The notes: a model not told the origin generated them from the letters alone. A stretch of 64,000 nt of DNA from Myxococcota bacterium (GCA_039030515.1 JBCCEA010000001.1:29896-93895), one strand, 5' to 3'; positions 3,245 to 39,583 are shown, counted from the stretch's first letter. Numbers and translations: made by a program.

Positions 3245-3767
3245 GGTTTTTATACGGCCTAGCGTTTTTGTATTCGCACTTATAGTGCAATGCATGCTGT
3301 CTTCAGAAGTCTTGGCTCAGCAACGTCGCTTTGGTGTGACCTTTGATTCGGGTTCGGGCATCTCTATGGCTTCCGGACAGGAAGATGTTGTCACGCGTCG
3401 AACTCCGATATTTCTGGATGCCGGTGTGCGAACTTTTGTCGACACAAGACCTGAGCTTGCCTACGCGGGAGCCCTCAGAGTCGAGGTCGATGGCCGCGCG
3501 AGCGTGGGAGTGGTGGCTCGGGTGGAGTACTCGGTTCCGCTCACTCGGAGCCTCACCTTCAGGCCTCAGGGAGGTCTGAATCTATTTTTGGCACCGTTCA
3601 GCATGTTCGGCCCTGAGCTTGGTTTCGCGTTGCGCCTCGCGCTCGATCCCAAAGCAGCCCTGGTCGCGCGCGGGCTTATCGACGGCTATCTATGGGGCAG
3701 CGATGTGCCCGACGATACGGCGGTAGTCATGATCAACGGCACGCTCGGATTAGAGCTGCTTTTATGA
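3222..3767 (+). CDS. putative secreted / outer-membrane beta-strand-rich protein
   Basis: GTG 3222 preceded by GGAGAGAGG. Signal-like RVFIRPSVFVFALIVQCMLSSEVLA-QQ. Alternating hydrophobic pattern thereafter. The ATG at 3117 would overlap the upstream gene by 128 nt. Confidence 0.45.
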   Translation: MQFGTLPRVFIRPSVFVFALIVQCMLSSEVLAQQRRFGVTFDSGSGISMASGQEDVVTRRTPIFLDAGVRTFVDTRPELAYAGALRVEVDGRASVGVVARVEYSVPLTRSLTFRPQGGLNLFLAPFSMFGPELGFALRLALDPKAALVARGLIDGYLWGSDVPDDTAVVMINGTLGLELLL

Positions 3768-4240
3768 AAGGTGTCCGCAGAACCGTCCGCAGCTCAGGCT
3801 TTGCCCGAGTTGCGTTTCTGGTGATTTTGGAGGTCTCGCTGTGGTCGGTTTCGGCGTGCGGTGACTCTTGCGTTCGACATAGCGACTGCCCGGGAGATCA
3901 AGAGTGTGTTGTGGGTGTGTGCACAATTTTGGCATCCGAGGCGTCGGTTGGGGATGCCAGTCAGGAGGCTGGATCGATCGATGGAGCGGCCGGCGGCGAG
4001 GGCGGAGTTGTGGACGCCACCGTACTGGTCGATTCGGCGGTTGTGGATTCAGCGGTCGATGGAGCGGCCGGCGGCGAGGGCGGAGTTGTGGACGCCACCG
4101 TACTGGTCGATTCGGCGGTTGTGGATTCAGCGGTCGATGCCGCGGCGACGGATGCAGGGCTGAACGACGCTACGCCAAGCGATGCATCGAGCGATGCTGG
4201 CGCAGTCGACGGAGGCGCTGCGGATTCGGCAGCTTCGTAG
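3764..4240 (+). CDS. Cys-rich lipoprotein with acidic Ala/Asp/Val repeat
   Basis: ATGA overlap with the upstream stop. Lipobox LWSVSA-C, then CGDSCVRHSDCPGDQECVVGVC, then a duplicated 26-aa unit. Confidence 0.6.
   Translation: MKGVRRTVRSSGFARVAFLVILEVSLWSVSACGDSCVRHSDCPGDQECVVGVCTILASEASVGDASQEAGSIDGAAGGEGGVVDATVLVDSAVVDSAVDGAAGGEGGVVDATVLVDSAVVDSAVDAAATDAGLNDATPSDASSDAGAVDGGAADSAAS
3980..4135. repeat. perfect 78-bp tandem duplication (2 copies) inside the lipoprotein gene
   Basis: GATGGAGCGGCCGGCGGCGAGGGCGGAGTTGTGGACGCC... repeats exactly with period 78, giving the 26-aa unit DGAAGGEGGVVDATVLVDSAVVDSAV twice. Confidence 0.9.
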
Positions 4241-4346
4241 TCGACCGATATCGTGATCGACCGATAGGTCCTCTCAGAGAATCGCGGCGAGTTGATCGAA
4301 TAACCCCGAGAAACCAAGCACAGATGTTCGAAGGGTCACTCAATCC

Positions 4347-5249
4347 TCATTCCCAATCTGCGACCTTTGCACGAATTTGCTTTTCGAGTGCAGCTCGCAC
4401 GTCGTTTGAAATACCGAGGCCATGCCACGACTGGTGCACCTCTTCCTGAGGAGTGTAGTCCGCGTTGTCGAGGAGCGGGATTCCAAACCCCTCTCCTCGA
4501 ACGAGGTCGTCGGCAATGGTGACGATCGCCGCCAGCGGGTTGATACGCCCATCCATGCGCGGGCAGTGGTGATGCTCGACGATCCACCGGATTTCATCGG
4601 AAAGTTCCCAGGCCTTGCAGACCGCACCGCCGGCGTGCTCATGGGCGCTGTCGATCGCCGATGCGAGTAGATCTGCGCTCAAGTCGTCCAGGTCTTTGAG
4701 TTTTGGACTGTCGACGATCGCTAAGGCGGCAGCCGTACCCATGTCGTGCAGCAGACCGCAGAGGAAGAGATGGTCTGATGGATATTGCGTCTGGTCGGAG
4801 AGAAACTGACAGGCTCGGGCCACCTTGATGCTGTGGTCCTTGACGGAATTCATGACCTCTCCGTACCGCTTGCTTCGAAAGAGGGTAGATTCCATCGCCA
4901 CGATCCAAACCAGGTTCTGGATCTCTTTGAGACCTAGCCGCATGCACGCATCTTTCAGGCTTCGCGGCGCTACCTTGGTTTTGTACATCGGAGAGGCAGC
5001 GCGATGAAGCATGCTGGCTGCGATCATCGGATCGGTGGAAATCAGCTCGATGATCTCCTCCATCCCGACGTTGGGTCGCTTGATCAGTGCATTGACCTCC
5101 AGAGCGACCTTCGGCAGTAGGGGCGGACGGTAGTCTTCTCTACGAAAGAGCGCCAAAATCCGCTCGGTTGGATCGTCAAAGAGCGAGGCGTCGGCTTCGT
5201 TTACGCTGTGTATGCCCCGTCCATAGTTTGGGTTCATCCTCGCTTTCAA
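4347..5249 (-). CDS. HDOD domain protein
   Basis: LLPKVALEVNALIKRPNVGMEEIIELISTDPMIAASMLHRAASPMY and GLLHDMG match the HDOD pattern. TTG start with AGGAGG 8 nt upstream. Confidence 0.8.
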   Translation of the reverse strand: MKARMNPNYGRGIHSVNEADASLFDDPTERILALFRREDYRPPLLPKVALEVNALIKRPNVGMEEIIELISTDPMIAASMLHRAASPMYKTKVAPRSLKDACMRLGLKEIQNLVWIVAMESTLFRSKRYGEVMNSVKDHSIKVARACQFLSDQTQYPSDHLFLCGLLHDMGTAAALAIVDSPKLKDLDDLSADLLASAIDSAHEHAGGAVCKAWELSDEIRWIVEHHHCPRMDGRINPLAAIVTIADDLVRGEGFGIPLLDNADYTPQEEVHQSWHGLGISNDVRAALEKQIRAKVADWE

Positions 5250-5353
5250 ATTACATTCCTCCTTTGAATGAAGGAGCCCAGGCGATCCGCATTTCTATGG
5301 GAAACGGCGAGTTGATCGAGAACTAAAGCCGATGTCCTTTTTTTGCGCCTCCT

Positions 5354-6472
5354 TTAGCGAGACGCGAGCTTCAATGCTCGCACCAAATCGCTTGCGTTGT
5401 TGGCGACGGCCTGTGCGGTTTGCGTCGCGATCACGCCGTCCCGCACCAGGCGGATCAACATCCGATCAAAAGAGTGAGAGCCTACCTCGCTGGAGCACGT
5501 GTCGAGTGCGGCAGCCAGGCCCCGGAGACGACTCCCGTCTCGAATGCACTCCATGATGGTTGGGGCTGGAACGAGGATTTCGGTGGCAAGCACCAGTTCG
5601 CTGCCCCCTCGTTTGGGGATGAGTCTTTGGGACACGATCGCGCTGAGGCAGTCTGCAAGTCGTTGACGGGTCGCGTCGCGCTGATCTTCCCCGTAGAAGT
5701 TGACGATTCGTGAGATCGCTCGCGTGGCGTCCTTGCTGTGCATCGTCGACACGACGAGTCGGCCTGACTCTGCGGCGGTGATGGCGACGTTGATGTCTTG
5801 ATGGTTTCGGAGCTCTCCGATGAAGATCACGTCCGGGTCTTCACGCAGGGCGCCTTCCAGTCCCTCTTCGAAAGAATCGACATCTCTGCCCACCTCGCGC
5901 TGCGAGAATCCCGAGTTGACATCTTTGAAGACAAACTCGATCGGGTCTTCGATGGTGACGATATGTTTCGAGGTCGTTTTGTTGATGTACTCGAGCATCG
6001 AAGCGATCGTGGTTGACTTGCCGTTCCGAGTGGCTCCGGTGACCAGGATCAGACCTCGGTTCTGCATTGCGATGCGCTTCATCACCGGTGGAAGTCGCAG
6101 GCTCGTGAAGTCTGGAATCTCGCTTGGAATGTTTCTGGCGATGAGGCCGAGCGTCCCGTTTTGCTTGTAGAGATGGCAGCGAATGCGGGTCACGTTCGGT
6201 ATCTGACATGAAAAGTCGCACTGGTTGCGCTTGATGAGATCGAGAGAGATCCCTGCCCATCGCGCAAGCGCACTCGCTCCTCCGGTGATCGTGGCCTCGT
6301 CGAGCGGGGGGTGGTCGAGAGGACAGAGCTGACCTCGAATACGGACCATCGGGGTAGCGGCGGCCCGAAGGTGGATGTCGGAGGCTCCGGCGGCGAGCGC
6401 GCCCTTTAGAATTCTCAGTACCGTTTCCTGCGCTTTGTAGTTCTCACCCTCGCTCGGCGTGGCCGCCTTCAC
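5354..6472 (-). CDS. PilT/PilU-family type IV pilus retraction-type ATPase (variant Walker A GATRNGKST)
   Basis: Motifs seen: ASDIHL, Walker A GATRNGKST, Asp box IVTIEDPIEF, Walker B DPDVIFIGELR, His box VVSTMHSKDA. Confidence 0.9.
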   Translation of the reverse strand: MKAATPSEGENYKAQETVLRILKGALAAGASDIHLRAAATPMVRIRGQLCPLDHPPLDEATITGGASALARWAGISLDLIKRNQCDFSCQIPNVTRIRCHLYKQNGTLGLIARNIPSEIPDFTSLRLPPVMKRIAMQNRGLILVTGATRNGKSTTIASMLEYINKTTSKHIVTIEDPIEFVFKDVNSGFSQREVGRDVDSFEEGLEGALREDPDVIFIGELRNHQDINVAITAAESGRLVVSTMHSKDATRAISRIVNFYGEDQRDATRQRLADCLSAIVSQRLIPKRGGSELVLATEILVPAPTIMECIRDGSRLRGLAAALDTCSSEVGSHSFDRMLIRLVRDGVIATQTAQAVANNASDLVRALKLASR

Positions 6473-7932
6473 GACTTTGCCATTTCAACCCGATTGCGAC
6501 CCGCGTTTTTGGCGGCGTAGAGCGCTCGGTCGGCGTTTTCGATCAGTTCCTCTGGGTTTTCTGCCGCAAGTCTCGAGTCACAGGTGACGCCGAGGCTCGC
6601 GGTAACCCGCAGCGGTTCGCCATGATAGTCGACCACTTTGGCCTCGATGGCTTCCCGCATCTCTTCCGCAAGTCGGGCTGCCTCTTTGGCTTCGGTGTTC
6701 GGCATGATGACGCAGAACTCTTCTCCGCCAAATCGGGCCGGAAAGTCGGACTTCCGCAGATGGTCCTTCAGCGCTGCGGCGACCGAGCTGAGCACGAGGT
6801 CGCCGGCCTGGTGCCCATGGGTATCGTTGAACGCCTTGAAGTGGTCTACGTCGATCATGGCGACTGCGAGGGGGAGGCCTCTCTTACGGCTGCGCTCGAA
6901 CTCCCTTGTGATCGTTTCATCGAGGGCTCTTTTGTTCGGCAGTTTGGTCAGCGCATCGCTCAAGGCCATCGTCTTGAGTACTTGGTTGGCTCGCCTCAGT
7001 TCCGTCGCAAGCACTTCTTTTTCTTCGAGCAGGCGTTCAAGTCGGCGCACCGCACCTTCGTACTGTACGTTCAGCTGGAAGAGCTCTTCGGCGGCGTCCT
7101 TGATCAAGTCTTCGAGATTTGCCTGAGGCCTAAGGGTACGTTCAAAGTCTCGCGCGCATTCTTCAACTTTTATGGGTATCGAGTTAAGTAGTTCCTCGAT
7201 TATTTGCTCATCAAGCGCAAGGTGAACCCCTGCTTCGATCGCTTGCGCTCGTAGTTTGTGGGTAGGGCCTCCTTCAAAAACGGCCGCAAGGCGTTCTGCC
7301 GCCCAGCTCAATCGCGCGAGCTTGTCCTCTGGAGGTTCGAGTTGGTGATGGCATTCGATAGCGAGGGCGGTCGCCTGAGGCATGCCGTATTCCCGGGCGA
7401 GGCGAGCGCCTTTTTCAGGGTGCGCCATCCATCCTTCGGCACGCTCTTGAGTAGGACGGTGCAGCGCCGGTGAAGCCGCAAGGGCTGCGGCACGACTCAA
7501 ATCGGTTCGCGCATGAGAGAGCAGCCCGAGTTCCAGCAGGAGTCCCGTGGTGAATACCTCCGACTCGTCAGGATAATGCACGGCATGGGCAAGCTGCGCG
7601 ATCGCTACCGCCCGACGAAGACAGCACGCCAAGAGCTGTCTTCCTTCTGGGGTATCGGGCGCCATATCGGTGACGGCGATGTTTAATGCGAGGTTGCGAA
7701 TGCCGCGCACCCCGAGTACCGCACAAGCACGTCGAATGTCGGTCACCTTACTACGACGTAGGAGTAAGGGGCTGTTGACCAGGGACAGGACCCGGACGGT
7801 GAAGGCCGGATCGCTCTGTATCAGTCCTGCAACGTACGGCAGGGAGCAATCCGGCTGCATGGCCGCACTCACGATCTGCACCGCTAGGGCAGATATGGGT
7901 GAGCTAGTTTGTGAATCGGTATGCCCGGTCAT
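6469..7932 (-). CDS. HDOD-coiled coil-GGDEF diguanylate cyclase (GGEEF active site, RxxD I-site present)
   Basis: N-terminal HDOD (SLPYVAGLIQSDPAFTVRVLSLVNSPL). C-terminal DVDHFKAFNDTHGHQAGD, then RKSD-x5-GGEEF. 4-nt overlap with the pilT-like gene. Confidence 0.9.
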   Translation of the reverse strand: MTGHTDSQTSSPISALAVQIVSAAMQPDCSLPYVAGLIQSDPAFTVRVLSLVNSPLLLRRSKVTDIRRACAVLGVRGIRNLALNIAVTDMAPDTPEGRQLLACCLRRAVAIAQLAHAVHYPDESEVFTTGLLLELGLLSHARTDLSRAAALAASPALHRPTQERAEGWMAHPEKGARLAREYGMPQATALAIECHHQLEPPEDKLARLSWAAERLAAVFEGGPTHKLRAQAIEAGVHLALDEQIIEELLNSIPIKVEECARDFERTLRPQANLEDLIKDAAEELFQLNVQYEGAVRRLERLLEEKEVLATELRRANQVLKTMALSDALTKLPNKRALDETITREFERSRKRGLPLAVAMIDVDHFKAFNDTHGHQAGDLVLSSVAAALKDHLRKSDFPARFGGEEFCVIMPNTEAKEAARLAEEMREAIEAKVVDYHGEPLRVTASLGVTCDSRLAAENPEELIENADRALYAAKNAGRNRVEMAKS

Positions 7933-8018
7933 GAGGCGGCATCACTCCCACATCCCAGGTTTACGTCCATTTGGGGACAAACTGGACCCCTCGGCGTAGA
8001 GGGTCGTTCGTATTTTTT

Positions 8019-8633
8019 TCACGCGGCCGGCGAAGCGGGTTGGGCGACGAGTCCACCGAGTCCCTGAGCCACCAGGGTGTGTCGAACGCCGAGCTCTCGG
8101 CGATCGAGGATCACCTGCTTGCCCTCCCGCGAGTTGAGACCAAGCACGATAGGTGCCGCCAGGTTTACGGTGGCGGGGGCGTTTGGCGGCGCTGTAATCA
8201 CCGCAGCTACCGCGACCTCCTCGTCGTCAAGTCCAGCGATTTGTTGGGCCTCTTCGATTGGGTAGCCCTCAAATACGAGTCTTGCTTCGATGACCAAGAG
8301 TTGAATCTGCGGATCGACGCGTGATACGAGCGCGCGTACGTCGTGCCCCTCGTCGGTTTCGCAGAGCACAAAGCTCGTATGCTCTTGCATCCCGAGCAAA
8401 CCTGCCGGAAAGGCGAGTGCATGCTCGTCTGCCTCGCGGATCTGGACTGCACCGGCCTGTGCGCGCTGATTCTCGCTTTGAATCTTATCCACGAGCTCTC
8501 CTCGATACACCGAGAATTCCTTAGGGGCGTGCACCCCTATTCGTACTCTGCCGCGAGATACCGAAAGGACTGAAATCTGGATGAGTCCTCCGATTTCAAT
8601 TCGCTCTCCTATTTTTCTTGTTAACGTCAGCAT
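8019..8633 (-). CDS. csrA-fliW: CsrA-FliW fusion protein (N-terminal carbon storage regulator domain, C-terminal FliW domain)
   Basis: MLTLTRKIGERIEIGGLIQISVLSVSRGRVRIGVHAPKEFSVYRGELVDKI (CsrA) runs in frame, with no stop, into ALAFPAGLLGMQEHTSFVL...TVNLAAPIVLGLNSREGKQVIL (FliW). ATG 8633 has AAAGGAGAG upstream. Confidence 0.85.
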   Translation of the reverse strand: MLTLTRKIGERIEIGGLIQISVLSVSRGRVRIGVHAPKEFSVYRGELVDKIQSENQRAQAGAVQIREADEHALAFPAGLLGMQEHTSFVLCETDEGHDVRALVSRVDPQIQLLVIEARLVFEGYPIEEAQQIAGLDDEEVAVAAVITAPPNAPATVNLAAPIVLGLNSREGKQVILDRRELGVRHTLVAQGLGGLVAQPASPAA

Positions 8634-8654
8634 CCTTGCTCTCCTTTTGCAGCA

Positions 8655-9000
8655 CGCCTCGCTGGGCCCGAACGCCCGCTTACCTCCGATGCTCGTCGCT
8701 CGAAGTACCGAATGTACGCCTTCGCGTCTGCGCTTCGTGGGCGCAGGGCGTTCGGGCCCATCGAGACGCGCTGCAGTACGCCTCGCCGGTCCGGAAAGGC
8801 CGCGAACCTTTGATGTTCGTCGCTTGACGTACGGAATGAAGGCCTTCGCGTCTGCGCTTCGTGGGCGCAGGGCGTTCGGGCCCATCGAGACGCGCTGCAG
8901 TACGCCTCGCCGGTCCGGAAAGGCCGCGAACCTTTGATGTTCGTCGCTTGACGTACGGAGTGTACGCCTTCGCGCCTGCGCTTCGTGGGCGCAGGGCTCC
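8655..9000. repeat. 124-bp tandem repeat array (2 near-identical full copies plus diverged partial copies at each end) between flgL and csrA-fliW
   Basis: Units 8718-8841 and 8842-8965 differ at 3 of 124 positions. Partial copies lie at 8655-8717 and 8966 to about 9000. Each unit holds the hairpin CTGCGC-N7-GCGCAG and a TCCGGA-containing loop. Confidence 0.9.
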
Positions 9001-9036
9001 TAAGCGAATTGGTGCGCTCGCGATGAGCCAAGTACA

Positions 9037-9921
9037 TCATCGCTGCGCCAAGCTTGGTGGCGGAAGTTCTCCTGCGATCTGAACGGCTGTGTTCAAAGCC
9101 GTTTGGGCTTGATTGAACGCGAAGTACGCATCGACATCCGATTCTCCGACCAGCTCGGTTTGCCGGATGGCCGCTTCATCTTCCACTCGATCTGCCACAG
9201 ACTGTGCAACATCCAGGGCTGCAATCAGTGCACCGGTGGTTCCACGCGCATCGGAGACACGACCATGGGCGATGTCCAGACCGTCAAGCGTGCCTCGAAT
9301 CGCCGGCACATCATCGGCGCGAAGCGCAGTGGACAGATTTTCCAAGACCGCGATCGGGTCGTCCGGTGCTCCCGGAGCGAACGCCGCTTGCGCATTGATC
9401 TTCATCGGCATGCGTACGCCTGGCGCCACTTCCACTTCGCGAACATTTTGATCGCTGACGAATGTGCCCGATGCATCAAAAGGTGGTGCGTCCTCTAGGT
9501 AGCCCGCAAAGAGATAGGCCCCTCCCTGACCCTGGGTGTTCGCCAGAGAGATAAGCTGCTGCCTCAATTCCTCAACCTCCGATGCGGCGTTGAGCCGGTC
9601 TCCGGCATTGAGGGTATCGTTGGCGGTTTGGGTCGCGAGCTCGCGGGCTCGGTTCAGAATGTCGGTGACATTGGAAAGCGTATCGTCAGTGAGCTGCAGG
9701 TTTGCGATAGCGCGCTCGGCCGACTCCTTATGCATGGCGGCACGGGCCTCTCGGCTTCGCTCACGGCGGGCGGCCGCAAAATCCGCCGGATCGTCCGAAG
9801 GGTCCTGAACCCGGCGTCCGGTGGTCAACGTTTCCTGAGCCTGAGCTACTTCTTCACGGGATTTGGCGATGTTGATCCGGTTCAGTTCATAGAGCATGGA
9901 ATCCGTAACGCGCATCACCAT
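9037..9921 (-). CDS. flgL: flagellar hook-filament junction protein 3 (HAP3)
   Basis: MRVTDSMLYELNRINIAKSREE N-terminus with a flagellin-like C-terminus FNQAQTALNTAVQIAG. Follows flgK. Confidence 0.85.
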   Translation of the reverse strand: MVMRVTDSMLYELNRINIAKSREEVAQAQETLTTGRRVQDPSDDPADFAAARRERSREARAAMHKESAERAIANLQLTDDTLSNVTDILNRARELATQTANDTLNAGDRLNAASEVEELRQQLISLANTQGQGGAYLFAGYLEDAPPFDASGTFVSDQNVREVEVAPGVRMPMKINAQAAFAPGAPDDPIAVLENLSTALRADDVPAIRGTLDGLDIAHGRVSDARGTTGALIAALDVAQSVADRVEDEAAIRQTELVGESDVDAYFAFNQAQTALNTAVQIAGELPPPSLAQR

Positions 9922-9924
9922 CTC

Positions 9925-11316
9925 CTATCGCTTGAGGTTGATCAGCTCGGCGAGCATTTCATCCGCGGTTTGAATCACCTGGAGGCTGGTCTGGTAGCTG
10001 CGCTGAAACTGCATGAGGTTGACCATCTCCTCGTCGGTACTCGCTCCGGAAACGGACTCTCGCAGGGTGGAGACCTGTTCAAGTGCAGATTCGGAGGCTT
10101 CTTCCCGAAAAAGTGCATCCGATACGGTCACGCCGGCGTCGCCGATGAGCTCTCGAAGCGCTTCTCCGGCGGTCGCGGTGCTGCCAAGAGCGATCGAGCT
10201 TGTGGCAAGCGCTTGAAGATCGAGGGCGTTGCGGTTGTCCCCCGGTAAGAGCGTGGGGTCTGTGGCTGCCGCGAGCGCTTCAGGCACGCCATCTACGGCT
10301 GAAGAAATTTGCACTTGAGAAGCAGCGCCGCTTGCGGTGCCGATCGTTTCAAATAGATTCCGGCCGGTGATTCCATCCAGTCCATATCCGGCGCTGTGGG
10401 TGCCGTTGTAGGCGGTGGTAAAGTCGAACGCGAGCTGATCGAGCGCGTTTTGTGCGGAGGTCAAACCTCCGTCGCGTGCATCGATCCACCCGCTAAGCTG
10501 TCCGCTCGTAAGACTGGAGGCCACATTCTCTTGGACGCCAGCACTGATGCGGAACACGTCGACGTTGGAAGTCGCGGGATTTCGCTGCGTCGAGAGCGGA
10601 TGCACGGATCCATCGGCAGTGACCAAGGACTGGCCTCCTCCGAGAAGCAGTTGAATGGGGCCATCTTCCTGCTCGAGTACGGTGACCGGGACGACATCGG
10701 CTACTTCACGTACGAGCTGGTCTCGTCGATCTCTGAGGTCGCTTGCCTCAAGCTCAGAAAGCTCCGTTTTTGCAATTTCTTGCCCTAGTCGTGCGATTTC
10801 TTCAAGTTTTCCATTTAGGTCTGCAACTTCGTCTTCTATACGCCCGTTGATGTCCTCGCGTCGCTGGGTCAAGAAATCTGAAGTGGCTCGGAACGAATAT
10901 GCGAGCTGTTCGGCAAGGGTGAGTACCGAGTTGCGGCGCGTAAGGTCCGATGGATCCGAGCTGAGATCGGCGATCGCGTTTTCAAACGCGTCGAGTGCAT
11001 CCGCCAAGTTTCCAGCCTCATCGCCGAACGCCTCGTCGAGGGGTCTTAGCGCCTCTGCGCGCGCGGACGATTCACCCATCATCGAGCGGGCGCCGAGCAA
11101 ACGACGTTCGATGTACGGATCGATGACCCGTTTTTGTCCGACCGCGCGAGAGCCGAGTCCAGGAGATTGCGCGGCGATGGGATCGATGTGTGCCAGCCTC
11201 CGGCTGTATCCCTCCGTGCCGACGTTGGAGGCATTTTGTGAGGAGACCTGCGTTCCGAAGGCATGGCTGCGCATACCGTTGGCTCCCAGATTTAAGATGC
11301 CGAATACGGTCGTCAT
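9925..11316 (-). CDS. flgK: flagellar hook-filament junction protein 1 (HAP1)
   Basis: FGILNLGANGMRSHAFGTQVSSQNASNVGTEGYSRR N-terminus and EEMVNLMQFQRSYQTSLQVIQTADEMLAELINL C-terminus. Confidence 0.9.
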   Translation of the reverse strand: MTTVFGILNLGANGMRSHAFGTQVSSQNASNVGTEGYSRRLAHIDPIAAQSPGLGSRAVGQKRVIDPYIERRLLGARSMMGESSARAEALRPLDEAFGDEAGNLADALDAFENAIADLSSDPSDLTRRNSVLTLAEQLAYSFRATSDFLTQRREDINGRIEDEVADLNGKLEEIARLGQEIAKTELSELEASDLRDRRDQLVREVADVVPVTVLEQEDGPIQLLLGGGQSLVTADGSVHPLSTQRNPATSNVDVFRISAGVQENVASSLTSGQLSGWIDARDGGLTSAQNALDQLAFDFTTAYNGTHSAGYGLDGITGRNLFETIGTASGAASQVQISSAVDGVPEALAAATDPTLLPGDNRNALDLQALATSSIALGSTATAGEALRELIGDAGVTVSDALFREEASESALEQVSTLRESVSGASTDEEMVNLMQFQRSYQTSLQVIQTADEMLAELINLKR

Positions 11317-11320
11317 TCGG

Positions 11321-11638
11321 CTAGATCGCTCCCCTGCGCAGTCCGGACTGCAGGTCCTTGGGTTTGCCGCTCGCGCTGTACGCGATCGATGGCTCTTCGC
11401 CTCCCGTCGCCAACCCTCGGAGGCACGAAACGAGATGTCTCATGAGCCCGATGTTTCGGCGGGACAGCTCGGAAATTTCCTCAAGTTCGGAGTCGTGGAT
11501 GCCGATCTCTTGGATACGTGAAAGGAGGGCCCGCTTCTCTTCCTGAATCTTGAGGAGCTCGTCCAGGTTCGCGTATCGGGTTGCGGTGCGTTCCTTTGCC
11601 AGTACATCCCGAAACTTTTCAATTAAGACGTCATTCAT
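11321..11638 (-). CDS. FlgN-like export chaperone (putative)
   Basis: 105-aa helical protein between flgM and flgK. The call rests on position and composition only. Confidence 0.45.
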   Translation of the reverse strand: MNDVLIEKFRDVLAKERTATRYANLDELLKIQEEKRALLSRIQEIGIHDSELEEISELSRRNIGLMRHLVSCLRGLATGGEEPSIAYSASGKPKDLQSGLRRGAI

Positions 11639-11707
11639 TTTTGGATACTCATGTGGCTAGAGATTCAGCAAGGTGGTTTGAGTAGGCGTAGCCCCACCAC
11701 TTCTGGG

Positions 11708-11986
11708 CTAGCGTTCCTCCTCGAGCATGCGTTCGGCGATGCGTGCCGGATCGATCTCAAAACTACCGTCTTCGATGGCGGCGCGAAGGCGTTCGATCCG
11801 CTCTAGGTCGGGCTTTTGTTCGGCCCGGGCGTCCGCCAGGTGCTTTGCGGCTCCCGAGAGCTCTACCGAGGTGGAGTGCTGCGGACGCACCTCGCTCTGC
11901 CGTTGTTCCTCATGTACTTGCTTTGCACGAGTCTGGCTCGCTTTGATGTCGGCAAGAGTGCTCGCGTGTGGGTCTTGGATCTTCAT
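11708..11986 (-). CDS. flgM: anti-sigma-28 factor
   Basis: 92 aa. C-terminus RIERLRAAIEDGSFEIDPARIAERMLEE is the typical FlgM sigma-28-binding region. Confidence 0.75.
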   Translation of the reverse strand: MKIQDPHASTLADIKASQTRAKQVHEEQRQSEVRPQHSTSVELSGAAKHLADARAEQKPDLERIERLRAAIEDGSFEIDPARIAERMLEEER

Positions 11987-13203
11987 GATGAATGTTCCTC
12001 CAATCGTCGGTTCGGACGCTTCTCCGAGGACCTTGAGGAATAATTCGTAGGCTGAGGTCGAATTTCTCGAGTTGCGGGTGCCTCAGGTCGGTCGGAGTTT
12101 GATGCTCCAGGGGTTCCGGACAGCGGTACTTCGGCGTCTTCCATGGATGTGGAGCGACGAAGTTCAATGATTTCAATGCGCGAGAATCCGCCCCGGGGAT
12201 CGGTTCCACCAAAAGTTCCCGTTCGATTCCAGGTCCGGCGGGTTAAGTGACGAGCGCCATCCACCCGTGCCTCCCAGCCGTCGTAGACGATCTTCTGGAT
12301 CGCTCCGGAGGAGTCGTAGTCGATCGAGTGCACCCGCTCGACGATACCCATATGACCCGCACGCTCAGGATGGGCTGCACTTCCAGTGAGCATGAATGCG
12401 CGACGTCCCTGTAGTATTTCCTGATCGATGGAGGTTGCGCTCGCTCCTGTGACCACTCGACCCCACCCCTTTGGAACCTCACCATCTTCGATGCTCGTCG
12501 TGAGTCCGTTGGGCGCGGGATAGCCCCATCCGTGGGCCCGTGGGGCTACCGGCACCGAAAACCCGGCTCGTCTCGCAAGCTCCATCGTAAACAGATTGCA
12601 CTTGTATTGACCCTGGTAGCCCCCTGCGTCTTGCACGTTGAATGCGGCTATCTCACCGGAAGAGGTACGGGTGTGGTAGTTGCTCGAGAGATCGTCACGC
12701 TGAAGCGTGCCCTCGCGGCTCCAGCGCGTGGACCGCTCGGCGGAAAGAAGTTCCTGGGCGGCTTGCTGAAGTTGGGCAGTCGCTCCCTCGAGTGGGGCGC
12801 CGGTGATCGGACCAAAGTCTACCGACCTCATACGGCGTAGGGTGCCGACGAGTTTTGGGGACGATTCCCCATGCGGCTGGTTGGTCTTCGATGTGCTGAC
12901 GCTTCCAGTCTCCTGAGTCGCTGAAGAACCCAGAGACGCGTCCAGCGCATCTCGAAGCCCAATACCTCCGCCATCCGATAAAGCTTGGGTCAGGGCTTGG
13001 TCCACCAGGTGACCGAATACCGAGGCGCCCGGAGCCTTGCCGAGCATGCCGTCTGAAACGCTGGTTTCTCTCAGCACGCGAACCAGCTGGGCGAGGATGA
13101 GCTCTTCGAACTGACCTGCTGCCTGAGCGGAGTTGGTCTGCTTCGATGGTTGCTGCATCTGCTGCATCTGCTGTGCGATTTCTTCTGTGCCGATGAGCGT
13201 CAT
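11983..13203 (-). CDS. flgJ: FlgJ-like rod-binding protein fused to a CHAP/NlpC-P60-like Cys-His hydrolase domain
   Basis: N-terminal rod-binding motif AAGQFEELILAQLVRVLRET. C-terminal YKCNLFTMELARRAGF...GWG...AGHMGIVERV resembles a papain-like Cys/His amidase. ATGA overlap with flgI. Confidence 0.7.
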   Translation of the reverse strand: MTLIGTEEIAQQMQQMQQPSKQTNSAQAAGQFEELILAQLVRVLRETSVSDGMLGKAPGASVFGHLVDQALTQALSDGGGIGLRDALDASLGSSATQETGSVSTSKTNQPHGESSPKLVGTLRRMRSVDFGPITGAPLEGATAQLQQAAQELLSAERSTRWSREGTLQRDDLSSNYHTRTSSGEIAAFNVQDAGGYQGQYKCNLFTMELARRAGFSVPVAPRAHGWGYPAPNGLTTSIEDGEVPKGWGRVVTGASATSIDQEILQGRRAFMLTGSAAHPERAGHMGIVERVHSIDYDSSGAIQKIVYDGWEARVDGARHLTRRTWNRTGTFGGTDPRGGFSRIEIIELRRSTSMEDAEVPLSGTPGASNSDRPEAPATREIRPQPTNYSSRSSEKRPNRRLEEHSS

Positions 13204-15799: not shown

Positions 15800-15815
15800 A
15801 GCACTGAACGTGCCA
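15800..15815 (-). promoter_or_regulatory. sigma-54 promoter TGGCAC-gttca-gTGCt upstream of flgA
   Basis: The minus strand reads ccggcTGGCACgttcagTGCtgtgtctaacgaagATG. GG/GC spacing is canonical. Confidence 0.55.
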
Positions 15816-25439: not shown

Positions 25440-26192
25440 TCAGCGAGCGGCGAGGTCGCGCGCGGCGCGTTCATCGATTTGTTTGAAGTTGTCGATGACT
25501 TTCTGAAAAGCATCGAATGCCCGGCTGGCCGTAATCAACTCGGTCATTCCCTGCACTGCATTCATATTGCTGGTTTCGAGAGAGCCCTGAACGACCTGAA
25601 CCTCTCCTGGCAAGACCGCAGGTAGTGGATCGGGCGCACGAAACAGGGTGAGTCCCTCTTTTTCCAGCTGCGCTAAGTCGAAGCGTACGATTCGTAGCCG
25701 ACCGACCTCAGCGCCGTCCGCGTGTATCGTGCCATCACTGCCGATTACGATTTCTGCAGCATCCTCGGGAATACGAATCTCGGCGGTTCTGGGATCGTTT
25801 GGATTTCCCTCCGCGGAAAGGACCTGATGACCGCCTGGAGAACGCAAAAGTCCCTCTGCGTCGGTACGAAAAGAACCGGCACGCGTATAGCGCACGCCCG
25901 CGTTTGTTTGCAGAGCGAACAAACCCTCTCCCTGTAGGGCGAGGTCTAAAGGAGCTCCCGTAGACTCGAGGGTACCGGGGGCCGCATCGATCCCGACCTC
26001 TGCGACCCCCACGTAGCGGAGCGGCTGCACCACGTCCGGATCGCCTGACGCGCCTGCAAGGGTCTCCCTAAAGGCGACTCGATCGGCGCGAAAGCCGGTG
26101 GTGCCCGCATTGGCGACGTTGTTGGCCACCACACTCAGGTTTCGCTCCTGAGCGATCGCTCCCGACAAAGCGCTATAGATACCGTCACTCAT
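25440..26192 (-). CDS. flgF: flagellar proximal rod protein
   Basis: IYSALSGAIAQERNLSVVANNVANAGTTGFR and LITASRAFDAFQKVIDNFKQID. Confidence 0.9.
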   Translation of the reverse strand: MSDGIYSALSGAIAQERNLSVVANNVANAGTTGFRADRVAFRETLAGASGDPDVVQPLRYVGVAEVGIDAAPGTLESTGAPLDLALQGEGLFALQTNAGVRYTRAGSFRTDAEGLLRSPGGHQVLSAEGNPNDPRTAEIRIPEDAAEIVIGSDGTIHADGAEVGRLRIVRFDLAQLEKEGLTLFRAPDPLPAVLPGEVQVVQGSLETSNMNAVQGMTELITASRAFDAFQKVIDNFKQIDERAARDLAAR

Positions 26193-26902
26193 TCTGAATC
26201 ACTCTTAATTCGTGAACGCAGCCGAGCGGTTGCCTCACCTAGGAGTTGACATATGCGGCTTTCGGTAACGTCGAGTATCTTACCTATCTCCGCCTGAGTG
26301 CATTCTTCTTGATAGTAGAGTGCCAGCACCAACTGAGTACGCTGAGGTAGCTTACCGATCGCAGATATCAGTTTTGAGTGCAGTCGTTCCTGTTCGAGTA
26401 GGCCTTCTGGATCTTTGCCGGCGTTGGCGATCTCATCGGGTTCGACTTCCCCAAGGCGTCCCAACGCTGGAGCTCGTGCCAAATGCTCCATAAGCTTTTG
26501 GAACTGCTCTAAGGGTATAGAAAGCCTTGCGGAGATCTCCTCCTCTGTCGGTTCTGTGCCGTATTCTTGTCTCAGCTCGCGAATGGTCTTTTCAACCTCT
26601 GCCATCCGTCTCCGCCCGTGTCGGGTCATCGGATCTGCCGCACGGAGCTCGTCGAGAATGGCTCCGCGGATTCGGGTGTCCGCATAGGGTTCGAAACGTG
26701 GATTTACTTTTTCGTCATAGGCGTTTACCGCCTTAAGCAGGCCCTCGGTTCCGGCAGATATCAAATCGTCCACCTCCACGTTGGGAGGCAGTCTACGCGC
26801 CATTCGAAACGCGATGCGTCGGACTCTGGTCAGGCCAACGCGAACCAACTCGTCTCGTTTGGACTCTCGACCGTAGACCTTATGTACTGCGTGGCCTAAC
26901 AC
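26189..26902 (-). CDS. fliA: flagellar sigma-28 factor
   Basis: Region 2 VEVDDLISAGTEGLLKAVNAYD and region 4 TQAEIGKILDVTESRICQLLGEATARLR. Sits after flhG. Confidence 0.9.
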   Translation of the reverse strand: MLGHAVHKVYGRESKRDELVRVGLTRVRRIAFRMARRLPPNVEVDDLISAGTEGLLKAVNAYDEKVNPRFEPYADTRIRGAILDELRAADPMTRHGRRRMAEVEKTIRELRQEYGTEPTEEEISARLSIPLEQFQKLMEHLARAPALGRLGEVEPDEIANAGKDPEGLLEQERLHSKLISAIGKLPQRTQLVLALYYQEECTQAEIGKILDVTESRICQLLGEATARLRSRIKSDSE

Positions 26903-37298: not shown

Positions 37299-37314
37299 AG
37301 CACGGCGTGTGCCA
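37299..37314 (-). promoter_or_regulatory. sigma-54 promoter TGGCAC-acgcc-gTGCt upstream of fliL
   Basis: The minus strand reads ttcTGGCACacgccgTGCtcctttactttcgcgATG. Canonical GG/GC spacing. Confidence 0.55.
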
Positions 37315-38008: not shown

Positions 38009-39583
38009 CTAGCGCTCCGAGGATGCGCGCGCAGATCCCGCGAGACCGAGTCGTCGCCGCATTTTCGCAAGCCGACTTCGTTCCATTCCCAAACGCTGAG
38101 CGGCCCGACGGATCACGCCTTCCTCATGGCACATCGCGTGTTGGATCAGCGCGGTCGCGAGCGTACGGATCGCCTCGTCGTAGTGCACACCGTAGCGGAT
38201 AAATACGCCCGTTGATGGTTCTCGATTCGGCGTTTGGGAACGAGGATCGAGATCCACAATTCGAGGAGAAAGGAGGTTCAACTGGTCGATTTCCGATCCG
38301 CTCGATAGGACGACGAGTCGCTCTATCTCGTTGGCTAACTCTCGTACGTTGCCCGGCCAGTCGTAGCGCTCGAGTGCGCCCAGCACTTCGGCAGACAAGC
38401 GGAGCGGCGGAGTCGAGTACTTTGCGGTGTAGAGGTCCAGAAAGTGTTTTGCAAGCAGGGAGATGTCGCCTTCCCGATTTCGCAACGGAGGAAGTTCGAT
38501 ACCGACAACGACGAGCCTGAAATAGAGATCCTCTCGAAATCGCCCTGCCCGTACTTCCTGTCGTAAGTCTTTATGCGTTGCCGAGATGAGACGTACATCG
38601 ACCTGCTCCGGGCGGCTGGAACCGATGGGCGTGATCTCTCCCTCTTGCAGAACGCGTAGAAGCATCGATTGAGTCGAAAGAGAAAGTTCGGCCACCTCGT
38701 CCAAGAACAGGGTTCCGCCGTCGGCCTCATGAAAGAGACCCGGCTGATCGCGAGTTGCACCCGTAAACGCGCCTTTTCGATGACCGAACAGCGTACTCTG
38801 CAATAGGGACTCGGTGAGGCCTCCGCAGTTTTGCGCGATGAACGGAGATCGACTGCGGGGACCACCTGTATGCAGCGCTTTGGCCACCAGTTCTTTGCCG
38901 GTTCCGGTCTCGCCAGAGATGTAGACGGTGACGTCGGTTCGGCGTACGCGCTCCAGAGCCAGCAGCGCTTTACGAAGCGCCGGACTCGATCCAACAATCG
39001 ATTCAAACCCAGCTGCCCTGCGCAGCGTTTCGTTTTCGCGTGCGAGCTTTTTGTTTTGCGCCTCCAGGGTGGCCTCTCGATCGGTCCGCTGGACCTCAAG
39101 GCTGTAGCTTTGTGAACACTGATAGATCGCGCTGCGAAGCTCCTCAGGGCTGAATGGTTTGGCTACAAAACGGCTAATTTCGCAAGCATTGACGAATTGT
39201 TTGAGCACTTCTACGTCCGCGTAGCCCGACATGAGAATCCGCTCTGTGCACGCGGAGGGGTATCGTTTTGCGATTTCGGTGAGCAGTTCAAGGCCACTCA
39301 TCTGCGGCATATTTTGATCGGTCACTAGTACCGCTGGCTCCACCTCCTCAAAGGCCTCGAGGGCTTCCCGTCCCGAGGAACAGAGGACGATGTCGAAGAT
39401 TCCCCCGAGGGACCTTTGGGTGGCTCGAAGAAATGGCTCTTCATCATCGACCAAGATGACGCGATGCTTGTGCGTTTGAAGTGTGCCGTCACCCTCGGAG
39501 TTTTGAATATGGGAATGCCGGCGACTTCTCAGGGTAGGTTCGCCCGTCGAACCCAGGGCACCCAGGTGTTCATGACACTCCAT
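38009..39583 (-). CDS. sigma-54-dependent response regulator (NtrC/FlrC/FleR type enhancer-binding protein)
   Basis: Receiver (VILVDDEEPF...VLVTDQNMPQMSG), AAA+ (ISGETGTGKELVAKALH, GAFTGA, FLDEV) and C-terminal Fis-type HTH. Confidence 0.9.
   Translation of the reverse strand: MECHEHLGALGSTGEPTLRSRRHSHIQNSEGDGTLQTHKHRVILVDDEEPFLRATQRSLGGIFDIVLCSSGREALEAFEEVEPAVLVTDQNMPQMSGLELLTEIAKRYPSACTERILMSGYADVEVLKQFVNACEISRFVAKPFSPEELRSAIYQCSQSYSLEVQRTDREATLEAQNKKLARENETLRRAAGFESIVGSSPALRKALLALERVRRTDVTVYISGETGTGKELVAKALHTGGPRSRSPFIAQNCGGLTESLLQSTLFGHRKGAFTGATRDQPGLFHEADGGTLFLDEVAELSLSTQSMLLRVLQEGEITPIGSSRPEQVDVRLISATHKDLRQEVRAGRFREDLYFRLVVVGIELPPLRNREGDISLLAKHFLDLYTAKYSTPPLRLSAEVLGALERYDWPGNVRELANEIERLVVLSSGSEIDQLNLLSPRIVDLDPRSQTPNREPSTGVFIRYGVHYDEAIRTLATALIQHAMCHEEGVIRRAAQRLGMERSRLAKMRRRLGLAGSARASSER

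Follow-up and report, generated by a model that had tools for sequence, protein, structure and literature searches.

The 64,000-nucleotide (nt) stretch of DNA from a Myxococcota bacterium considered here (GCA_039030515.1 JBCCEA010000001.1:29896-93895, hereafter the window) carries, at positions 4347 to 7932 and on the minus strand, three genes that follow a flagellar operon and encode a diguanylate cyclase with HDOD and GGDEF domains, an ATPase of the PilT/PilU family and a stand-alone HDOD protein. When compared with its relatives, the ATPase falls into a discrete clade within the PilT/PilU family, restricted to uncultured Myxococcota with flagella, and what is conserved across that clade is the flagellar operon together with the ATPase, not the trio of genes. 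The role tentatively proposed for it is that of a specialised paralogue of PilT, produced along with the flagellum and adjusted by cyclic diguanylate (c-di-GMP), that would shut off pili in swimming cells; this reading may well prove wrong, and it is weighed below against its rivals.

The tie to the flagellar operon is strict. DNA upstream of the ATPase could be read at 19 loci, namely the window, eight loci reached through the contigs of clade members, seven retrieved by a DNA-pattern scan of metagenomes and three found via the CsrA::FliW fusion protein that the operon encodes, and together these loci represent 16 lineages (less than 85% identity). In all 19 the gene immediately ahead of the clade ATPase is csrA::fliW (ten loci), flgL (four) or an HDOD-GGDEF gene (five: the window, L001, L002, L005 and L211), and in these five the cyclase gene itself follows csrA::fliW. 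The upstream order is always flgH-I-J-M-N-K-L, with flgA ahead wherever the sequence reaches, and the distance from the ATPase to its upstream gene, as given by the envelopes of hidden Markov models (HMMs), is -16 to +111 nt. Where genes were called, six junctions (the window, L003, L005, L007, L008 and L212) show an overlap of 1-4 nt between the ATPase and that gene, and in L001/L002 and L006 the ATPase starts 1-2 nt past it, the L213 and L211 junctions, where gene calls vary, being left out of both counts. A separate search that set out from the three CsrA::FliW fusions of greatest divergence led to a clade ATPase downstream in three of three cases. The genes beyond the ATPase differ in every locus, which makes the ATPase the end of the conserved unit. 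Among the controls, flagellar neighbours were found at none of 80 other PilT loci from genomes and at none of about 109 loci of a second PilT-like group (Group II, described below), some 190 in total, so that chance adjacency and an ATPase that is just an ordinary PilT are both effectively excluded. A preliminary description of the window had judged the arrangement not to be a standard one, which the synteny upholds; its view of the three genes as a unit survives insofar as the ATPase is tied to the flagellar operon, but not for the trio as such. Co-occurrence with flgKL or csrA in relatives, which it had suggested checking, is strong for the ATPase (19/19), partial for HDOD-GGDEF and weak for the stand-alone HDOD protein.

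In the window, the minus-strand genes flgA-H-I-J-M-N-K-L lead into csrA::fliW, the cyclase, the ATPase and the HDOD gene. The last two flagellar structural genes are flgK (9925..11316; hook-filament junction protein 1, 726 bits with a local FlgK HMM, relatives annotated PF22638/PF06429) and flgL (9037..9921; hook-filament junction protein 3, 428 bits with a FlgL HMM, relatives annotated Flagellin_N). They are followed on the same strand by the csrA::fliW fusion (8019..8633, with its ATG at 8633, its stop at 8019 and an AAGGAG ribosome-binding site ahead), an 86-nt spacer (7933..8018), the gene for the 487-residue cyclase (6469..7932; Pfam and NCBIfam matches), the gene for the 372-residue ATPase (5354..6472), a 104-nt spacer and, last of the string, the gene for the 300-residue stand-alone HDOD protein (4347..5249; TTG start after AGGAGG). 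Open reading frame (ORF) and domain calls bear out the three genes as first described, all on the minus strand and with these boundaries, and the sequence confirms both the 86-nt gap and the 4-nt overlap in which the stop of the cyclase gene and the GTG start of the ATPase gene share GTGA (6469-6472). The operon had also been called late, which is not the whole of it, as it begins at flgA and includes flgH and flgI.

Since the ATPase gene usually overlaps or abuts its upstream gene, the protein is very probably made whenever the flgA-H-I-J-M-N-K-L(-csrA::fliW) operon is expressed. Pattern scans of the 86-nt and 104-nt spacers of the window found no sigma-70, sigma-28 or sigma-54 consensus and no intrinsic terminator, and both spacers fold no better than their shuffles (z = -0.39 for the 86-nt spacer). 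Sigma-70 and terminator scans stayed at or below shuffle expectation, and the sigma-28 pattern TAAA-N14-17-CGAWA gave two matches against 1.5 expected, none of them near the operon. These empty spacers, together with the overlaps in relatives, favour read-through of the ATPase string from the flagellar operon. At the head of the flgA...ATPase string, a pattern search returned a candidate sigma-54 promoter (TGGCACGTTCAGTGC, 15801..15815, minus strand), a consensus match with one mismatch. Boxes of the sigma-54 -24/-12 type, with one mismatch each, stand directly upstream of flgA (these same positions, 15801-15815) and of fliL (37300-37314), both on the minus strand; further genes of the window are that of a sigma-54 enhancer-binding response regulator (38009-39583) and fliA (26189-26902).

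The spacers also bear on the idea that the three genes form a self-contained c-di-GMP module which has a promoter of its own and just happens to stand next to the flagellar operon in this genome. The 86-nt and 104-nt gaps before the cyclase and HDOD genes would suit such a module, as would the spread of the cyclase family through non-flagellar contexts and a structured repeat of 403 nt, specific to the window, that lies between flgL and csrA::fliW. However, the gaps carry no promoter or terminator motif, the ATPase gene in relatives overlaps csrA::fliW or abuts flgL and leaves no room for a promoter, the cyclase gene of L211 overlaps csrA::fliW by 4 nt, and it is the tie between ATPase and flagellar operon, not the trio, that is conserved, all of which makes a self-contained module quite improbable.

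The clade to which the ATPase belongs is well separated from other PilT-like proteins. One database protein, from a 'Myxococcota bacterium' metagenome-assembled genome (253-kb contig), is 100% identical to the ATPase. Its best 118 database relatives are 49-60% identical to it, after which identity drops sharply to ~41% for ordinary PilT, and the named relatives all come from Myxococcota-type metagenome-assembled genomes (labelled Myxococcota, Polyangiales, Sandaracinaceae or 'Deltaproteobacteria'). With an HMM built from 49 members, clade sequences score 517-628 bits (the window ATPase 598) and all others at most 426 bits, a limit that also holds for the 1.84 billion cluster representatives scanned; clustered at 50%, the clade shrinks to essentially one representative. 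A neighbour-joining tree places 64 clade sequences in a monophyletic group against 186 other PilT-like sequences, without any foreign member and with a stem length of 0.17; PilT-like genes from other Myxococcota, for instance those of Sorangium (L073) and of a member of the Sandaracinaceae (L026), fall outside the clade. On average, clade members are 59% identical to one another, 38% to Group II and 36% to canonical PilT, although identity alone leaves no clean gap, the lowest value within the clade being 47% and the highest to an outsider 45-47%. When reference genome contigs were searched with three back-translated patterns from the clade alignment, two of which proved to be generic PilT motifs, the matches listed were canonical PilT of at most 41% identity, with no clade member among them, and the 80 PilT loci from this search served solely as negative controls. 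The Walker A motif was rejected as a marker of the clade, because the TGATGNGKSTT DNA pattern mostly retrieved Group II; it is the clade HMM score that separates the groups. Among the best matches of the clade profile in the 50%-clustered library are proteins of 700-1000 amino acids with two tandem PilT-like modules (P0263, P0265-P0270).

As regards family and fold, the ATPase scores 368.3 bits over residues 20-361 of 372 against NCBIfam TIGR01420 ('PilT/PilU family'; cut-off 319.1 bits), and in Pfam it matches T2SSE (E 5.6e-38) and, weakly, AAA_22. A search of the PDB aligned it over its full length to PilT structures from Thermus, Aquifex and Pseudomonas. The AlphaFold2 model (predicted local distance difference test score 93.8, predicted template modelling (TM) score 0.89) has the two-domain PilT fold, with an N-terminal PAS-like domain and a RecA-like ATPase domain, and its best Foldseek matches are all subunits of PilT/PilU hexamers, at TM scores of 0.8-0.93. 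The motifs that define the PilT family have been described previously (PMC6762196), and the ATPase carries a Walker A of the form GX4GK[ST] (GATRNGKST, nt 6011-6037, residues 146-154), an Asp box (IEDPIEF, nt 5933-5953) and the atypical Walker B Dh4GE with its catalytic Glu (DVIFIGE, nt 5807-5833), all on the minus strand. Across 109 clade sequences the Walker A Lys and both Glu residues of the Asp box are invariant, the Walker B Glu is kept in 108 and the second His of the His box in 106. Taken together, the predicted fold and the catalytic residues match an active hexameric motor of the PilT type.

Two motifs depart from this pattern. The first His of the His box, reported as necessary for function (PMC6762196), is Arg in 92 of the 109 clade sequences (84%) and His in 14, and the window ATPase likewise lacks the His pair (AESGRLVVSTMHS, nt 5735-5773, minus strand). 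In place of the PilT-specific AIRNLIRE motif stands TIMECIRD (nt 5537-5563, minus strand), identical to it at three of eight positions; the clade consensus here is T-V-x-D-C-I-R-D, in which an invariant Cys-x-Arg replaces the core of the motif. His100 and Tyr102 in the N-terminal domain are further signatures of the clade. Hence, the initial attribution of every PilT signature to this protein is right for the Asp box and Walker B but not for the His box, whose first His is Arg, nor for the degenerate AIRNLIRE. The deviation first noted in Walker A was likewise half correct: its A-T-x-N part is normal for the clade (GATGNGKST in 95 of the 120 matches listed) and occurs in other PilT-like groups as well, but the Gly-to-Arg change at position 4 is unusual, being found in 3 of the 109 clade sequences. 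As the two other sequences with Arg are ~60% identical to the window ATPase, the change is real but rare.

These features allow the ordinary explanation to be judged, according to which the protein is a normal PilT retraction ATPase and its flagellar adjacency a coincidence. It does pass the PilT/PilU threshold and is predicted to have the PilT fold, and the 64-kb window encodes no other PilT; however, the altered His box and degenerate AIRNLIRE, the separation of the clade from canonical PilT and a synteny shared by 19 of 19 loci from 16 lineages and by none of ~190 controls leave this explanation with hardly any probability.

The c-di-GMP-related genes around the ATPase are less constant. 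The cyclase is composed of an HDOD domain (residues 13-197; Pfam E 2.7e-29, 102.5 bits) that lacks the HD dyad, a coiled-coil linker and a GGDEF domain (residues 324-481; E 6.9e-48). It carries the motifs expected of an active, product-inhibited cyclase (GG[D/E]EF with RxxD five residues upstream), and the GGEEF (residues 402-406, nt 6715-6729) preceded at exactly five residues by RKSD (residues 393-396, nt 6745-6756), both on the minus strand, had been read correctly (RKSD-FPARF-GGEEF). It belongs to a large Myxococcota family of HDOD-GGDEF proteins with more than 120 relatives at 40-49% identity, and RxxD-x5-GGEEF is present in 15 of 15 family members checked. An HDOD-GGDEF gene is part of the ATPase operon in 4 of the 16 lineages (the window, L001/L002, L005 and L211), elsewhere the family occurs in unrelated gene contexts, and family members from non-flagellar loci are at least as close to the four operon copies as these are to each other. 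Because the family is widespread and its operon copies are no closer mutually, the protein is a generic regulated cyclase that was placed in the operon in some lineages only. An operon-specific subfamily was considered and dropped, as the neighbour-joining tree did not group the copies; the identities, 39-48%, are too low to choose between one old insertion and several recruitments. A general pairing of HDOD-GGDEF proteins with PilT-like ATPases was also rejected, given that L209 and L210 are without it.

The stand-alone HDOD protein matches Pfam HDOD (E 8.5e-35; 120.5 bits, against a PF08668 cut-off of 22.9) and HD (E 1.8e-08), retains both the HD dyad (LLHDMG) and an HHH cluster, and matches the HDOD structures 3i7a and 3hc1 in the PDB. 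No GYP motif occurs anywhere in it, and neither of the two HDOD proteins has the make-up of an HD-GYP phosphodiesterase. It adjoins the ATPase only in the window; similar HDOD+HD proteins are encoded 2-2.5 kb away in L005 and L006, and beside an HDOD-GGDEF family member in L209.

Other genes of the c-di-GMP type recur near clade ATPases, such as solo GGDEF genes in L006 and L213 and PilZ proteins in L212. When the same crude HMMs were applied to all loci with at least 6 kb of flank, such genes (HDOD, GGDEF, PilZ) were found within 5 kb at 5-6 of the 12 loci of the clade and at 13 of the 21 of Group II, as compared with 5 of 62 for canonical PilT (Fisher test, p = 0.002-0.008 and 2e-6, respectively), it being understood that the canonical loci come from many phyla and that the HMMs were built on myxobacterial sequences. 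Context therefore supports a functional tie of this part of the PilT family to c-di-GMP, and the link to c-di-GMP that the preliminary description had suggested now has statistical backing.

Group II deserves a description of its own. This second and more abundant PilT-like group has the same Walker A, GATGNGK[ST]T, together with a canonical His box and no flagellar link. Its ATPases are paired with a REC-like/PilZ protein encoded ~15 nt downstream (25 of 64 loci) or with a REC-GGDEF-EAL protein immediately upstream (~11 loci); examples are found in L101 (6024-8759 and 4934-6013), L128 (1825-4587), L133 (7403-9486) and L147 (7167-9178), with about 35 more among L089-L208. These pairs look like an uncharacterised c-di-GMP/PilT-like module. 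Identification of the PilZ partner with M. xanthus PixA was rejected, because the domain order is reversed.

How the clade ATPase might act can be outlined as follows. Its production would be slaved to assembly of the flagellum, and the protein would dock on the base of type IVa pili, where it could drive retraction or compete with PilB, with the consequence that cells committing to swimming would withdraw their pili. c-di-GMP from the operon's own cyclase would tune the activity or the recruitment of the ATPase, and the HDOD domain of the cyclase, along with the stand-alone HDOD protein, would serve as regulatory input or as a partner of the cyclase. PilT paralogues with auxiliary pilus roles are known in M. 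xanthus (PMC13584747), and a PilT paralogue co-transcribed in a non-pilus operon is known in Geobacter (PMC5065972). Several observations nevertheless count against pili as the target or c-di-GMP as the signal. Neither the 64-kb window nor any of the flanking stretches examined contains a type IV pilus gene, and HMM and Pfam searches of the window genes found no other PilT, no PilB-type ATPase and no pil gene. With Arg for the first His of the His box the motor may act differently from PilT, and the PilT-specific motif is degenerate. The ATPase has no MshEN or PilZ domain nor any other known c-di-GMP-binding domain according to Pfam, and its model shows no extra domain. Further, the cyclase is shared by a quarter of the lineages, from a family found in unrelated contexts and with operon copies no closer mutually than to its other members; read-through into the ATPase is argued from gene spacing; and the 403-nt structured repeat upstream of csrA::fliW could affect transcription.

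In the main rival reading, the ATPase would have been co-opted by the flagellum itself and would not act on pili, serving as a cytoplasmic hexameric motor or remodeller, whether at the basal body, the export gate, in the traffic of late substrates and chaperones, at a checkpoint involving CsrA::FliW and flagellin, or in disassembly. Its operon membership is strict and exclusive (19/19), its translation often being coupled to that of csrA::fliW or flgL, pilus genes are lacking in the neighbourhood, and it has diverged strongly from pilus PilT (36% identity, the His-to-Arg change in the His box, the degenerate AIRNLIRE); a precedent is offered by Helicobacter, where PilM, PilN and PilO form a motor cage (PMC10823254). 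On the other hand, no known flagellar process needs a PilT-type ATPase, the type III secretion system of the flagellum already has FliI, and a mechanistic template is lacking. Pfam searches of the flagellar clusters examined revealed no PilM/N/O-like or PilC-like partner, the complete PilT architecture is retained with no added domain, and position in an operon speaks for co-expression, not for physical association. Flagellar co-option is therefore rated as possible but rather doubtful.

A different alternative takes the clade protein for an ATPase that, under the control of c-di-GMP, has a regulatory or traffic role in some other envelope machine or signalling pathway (Tad-like, type II secretion-like or concerned with polarity), the flagellar operon providing timing only. 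The enrichment of c-di-GMP genes around both the clade and Group II agrees with this, as do PilT paralogues in non-pilus contexts, such as Geobacter pilT1 in the recA operon (PMC5065972), and the PilZ-domain kinase and ParA proteins encoded downstream in L212. However, flagellar genes are the only conserved partners, the downstream genes vary from locus to locus, and no platform, pilin or secretin genes lie nearby, which renders this alternative unlikely. In L212, the genes in question (9896-12732) encode a Ser/Thr kinase-PilZ fusion and a ParA/MinD-like-PilZ fusion and stand downstream, between the clade ATPase and a flagellin gene; in L003 and L004, too, the ATPase is followed by extra ParA/MinD-like genes.

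The gene immediately ahead of the string differs from its first description, which listed csrA and fliW as two genes: instead, a single ORF of 204 residues carries both Pfam domains, with CsrA at the N-terminus (E 1.8e-19) and FliW at the C-terminus (E 2.9e-20), so that the window does not encode the separate polypeptides of the FliW-CsrA partner-switch pair. The fusion, of ~200 residues in relatives, is found in every related locus that has the pair (L001 5875-6480; L003 7384-8004; L005 4814-5386; L006 6412-6999; L007 6375-7004; L008 6408-7004; also L211-L213), and both Pfam domains are present in 22 of 22 database relatives. Literature searches found no description of a natural CsrA-FliW fusion. 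Such a fusion would turn the antagonism of the two proteins into an intramolecular one, relieved by flagellin. The spacer between flgL and csrA is 403 nt long in the window (9036-8634), as opposed to 4-40 nt in relatives, and is filled by three tandem 124-nt repeats, each with 30-nt inverted arms (8648-9019). Its predicted RNA structure is far above that of shuffles (z = -5.4); the 124-nt repeat has no other copy in the window, and an Rfam search of 3800-12200 gave no match. The array may represent a repeat element that was inserted here, or else a structured leader for csrA::fliW.

With its remaining genes the window carries a full flagellar regulon. fliC, fliD, fliS and a fliT-like gene lie on the plus strand, and flgF/G, fliA, flhG, flhF, flhA, flhB, fliR, fliP, fliO, fliM/N, fliL and the sigma-54 activator are also encoded. 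The flagellar/chemotaxis region contains cheY-like and cheX-like genes at 17335-18275, as well as sizeable ORFs without a Pfam match at 15967-17160, 19239-20708, 21078-21716 and 22488-23285. A Cys-rich ORF on the plus strand (3692-4240), with a signal-peptide-like N-terminus and a weak EB-module match, is convergent with the HDOD gene and contains, at 3978-4146, a tandem repeat of 78 nt in 2.2 copies that are 97% identical.

Myxobacteria are textbook non-flagellated gliders and twitchers, and M. xanthus has no flagella. Their uncultured Myxococcota relatives described here have complete flagellar gene sets, with a pilus-type ATPase welded to the flagellar operon, and an annotation as 'PilT' in these genomes need not mean twitching motility. 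If the ATPase acts on pili, the arrangement would be a hard-wired genetic coupling of flagellum assembly to pilus withdrawal, and a clean answer to a swim-or-twitch decision that is elsewhere handled by diffuse c-di-GMP networks. If it acts on the flagellum instead, the flagellum would gain a component not known before and the PilT family a new task, and such co-option, as a component or dedicated accessory under c-di-GMP control, would be the second independent loan from type IV pili to flagella after the Helicobacter PilMNO proteins, and the first with a motor ATPase. In either case the clade is a sharply defined and testable target, being a small soluble protein with a confidently predicted fold and clear signature residues. 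Full-text searches of the literature turned up no description of a PilT in a flagellar operon and nothing specific on flagellated Myxococcota; the clade is previously undescribed, and the known PilT paralogues include one in a non-pilus operon and none in a flagellar one.

The closest known proteins are the PilT retraction motors of known structure (5FL3, Thermus thermophilus PilT2; 2EWV, Aquifex aeolicus; 3JVV, P. aeruginosa; 6OJX/6OJY, G. metallireducens PilT4), with which the ATPase shares its length, the predicted two-domain fold (TM 0.84-0.93 at 34-41% identity), the Walker A Lys, the Asp box, the atypical Dh4GE form of Walker B and the second of the His-box histidines. In contrast to PilT, with ~36% identity to it, the clade mostly has Arg as first His and Cys-x-Arg in place of AIRNLIRE, and its gene is never found beside pil genes and always ends a flagellar operon. 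The accessory members of the same family, PilU and other PilT paralogues, offer a second comparison (P. aeruginosa PilU, 9N32; M. xanthus MXAN_1995 and MXAN_0415/6705/6706, PMC13584747; V. cholerae PilU, PMC6762196). Like PilU, the ATPase has no good AIRNLIRE, and its part in pilus retraction is plausibly that of a modulator, not of the main motor. It nevertheless differs from PilU in that it has no C-terminal extension and in its unique flagellar operon context, and it is not demonstrably a PilU, being no closer to PilU than to PilT: P. aeruginosa PilU (9n32) scores 216 bits where PilT structures score 233-276, the tree containing no labelled PilU set; the M. xanthus paralogues, for their part, have no flagellar link. 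Geobacter sulfurreducens PilT1 (GSU0146), which is co-transcribed with recA (PMC5065972), is likewise a PilT paralogue within an operon for another process, although the host operon serves recombination, not the flagellum, and the protein belongs to another clade.

Other systems resemble single aspects of the arrangement. In Helicobacter pylori, the PilM/PilN/PilO cage (PMC10823254) shows type IV pilus-family proteins recruited, genetically as well as physically, to the flagellar motor and controlling motility; there, however, parts of the alignment complex were recruited and not the ATPase, H. pylori has no pili, and Pfam searches of the window's flagellar cluster found no PilMNO homologues. 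Control of a secretion-family ATPase or of a motility organelle by c-di-GMP is known from the MshEN domains of MshE and PilB (PMC4624765), from PilB-PilZ-FimX (PMC8389850) and from flagellar brakes of the YcgR type (PMC9303241). The likeness lies in the cyclase with its I-site directly upstream in the window and in the PilZ and GGDEF genes that recur near relatives, whereas the ATPase itself has neither MshEN nor PilZ, and the putative sensor would be the HDOD domain of the cyclase. Finally, the late flgM-flgN-flgK-flgL-fliW-csrA operon of the Bacillus subtilis type, with its switch between FliW, CsrA and flagellin (PMC4054197, PMC8523840), has the same gene string and the csrA/fliW pair; in the Myxococcota operon, by contrast, CsrA and FliW are fused, csrA comes first, flgA, flgH, flgI and flgJ stand upstream, and a PilT-family ATPase stands at the end.

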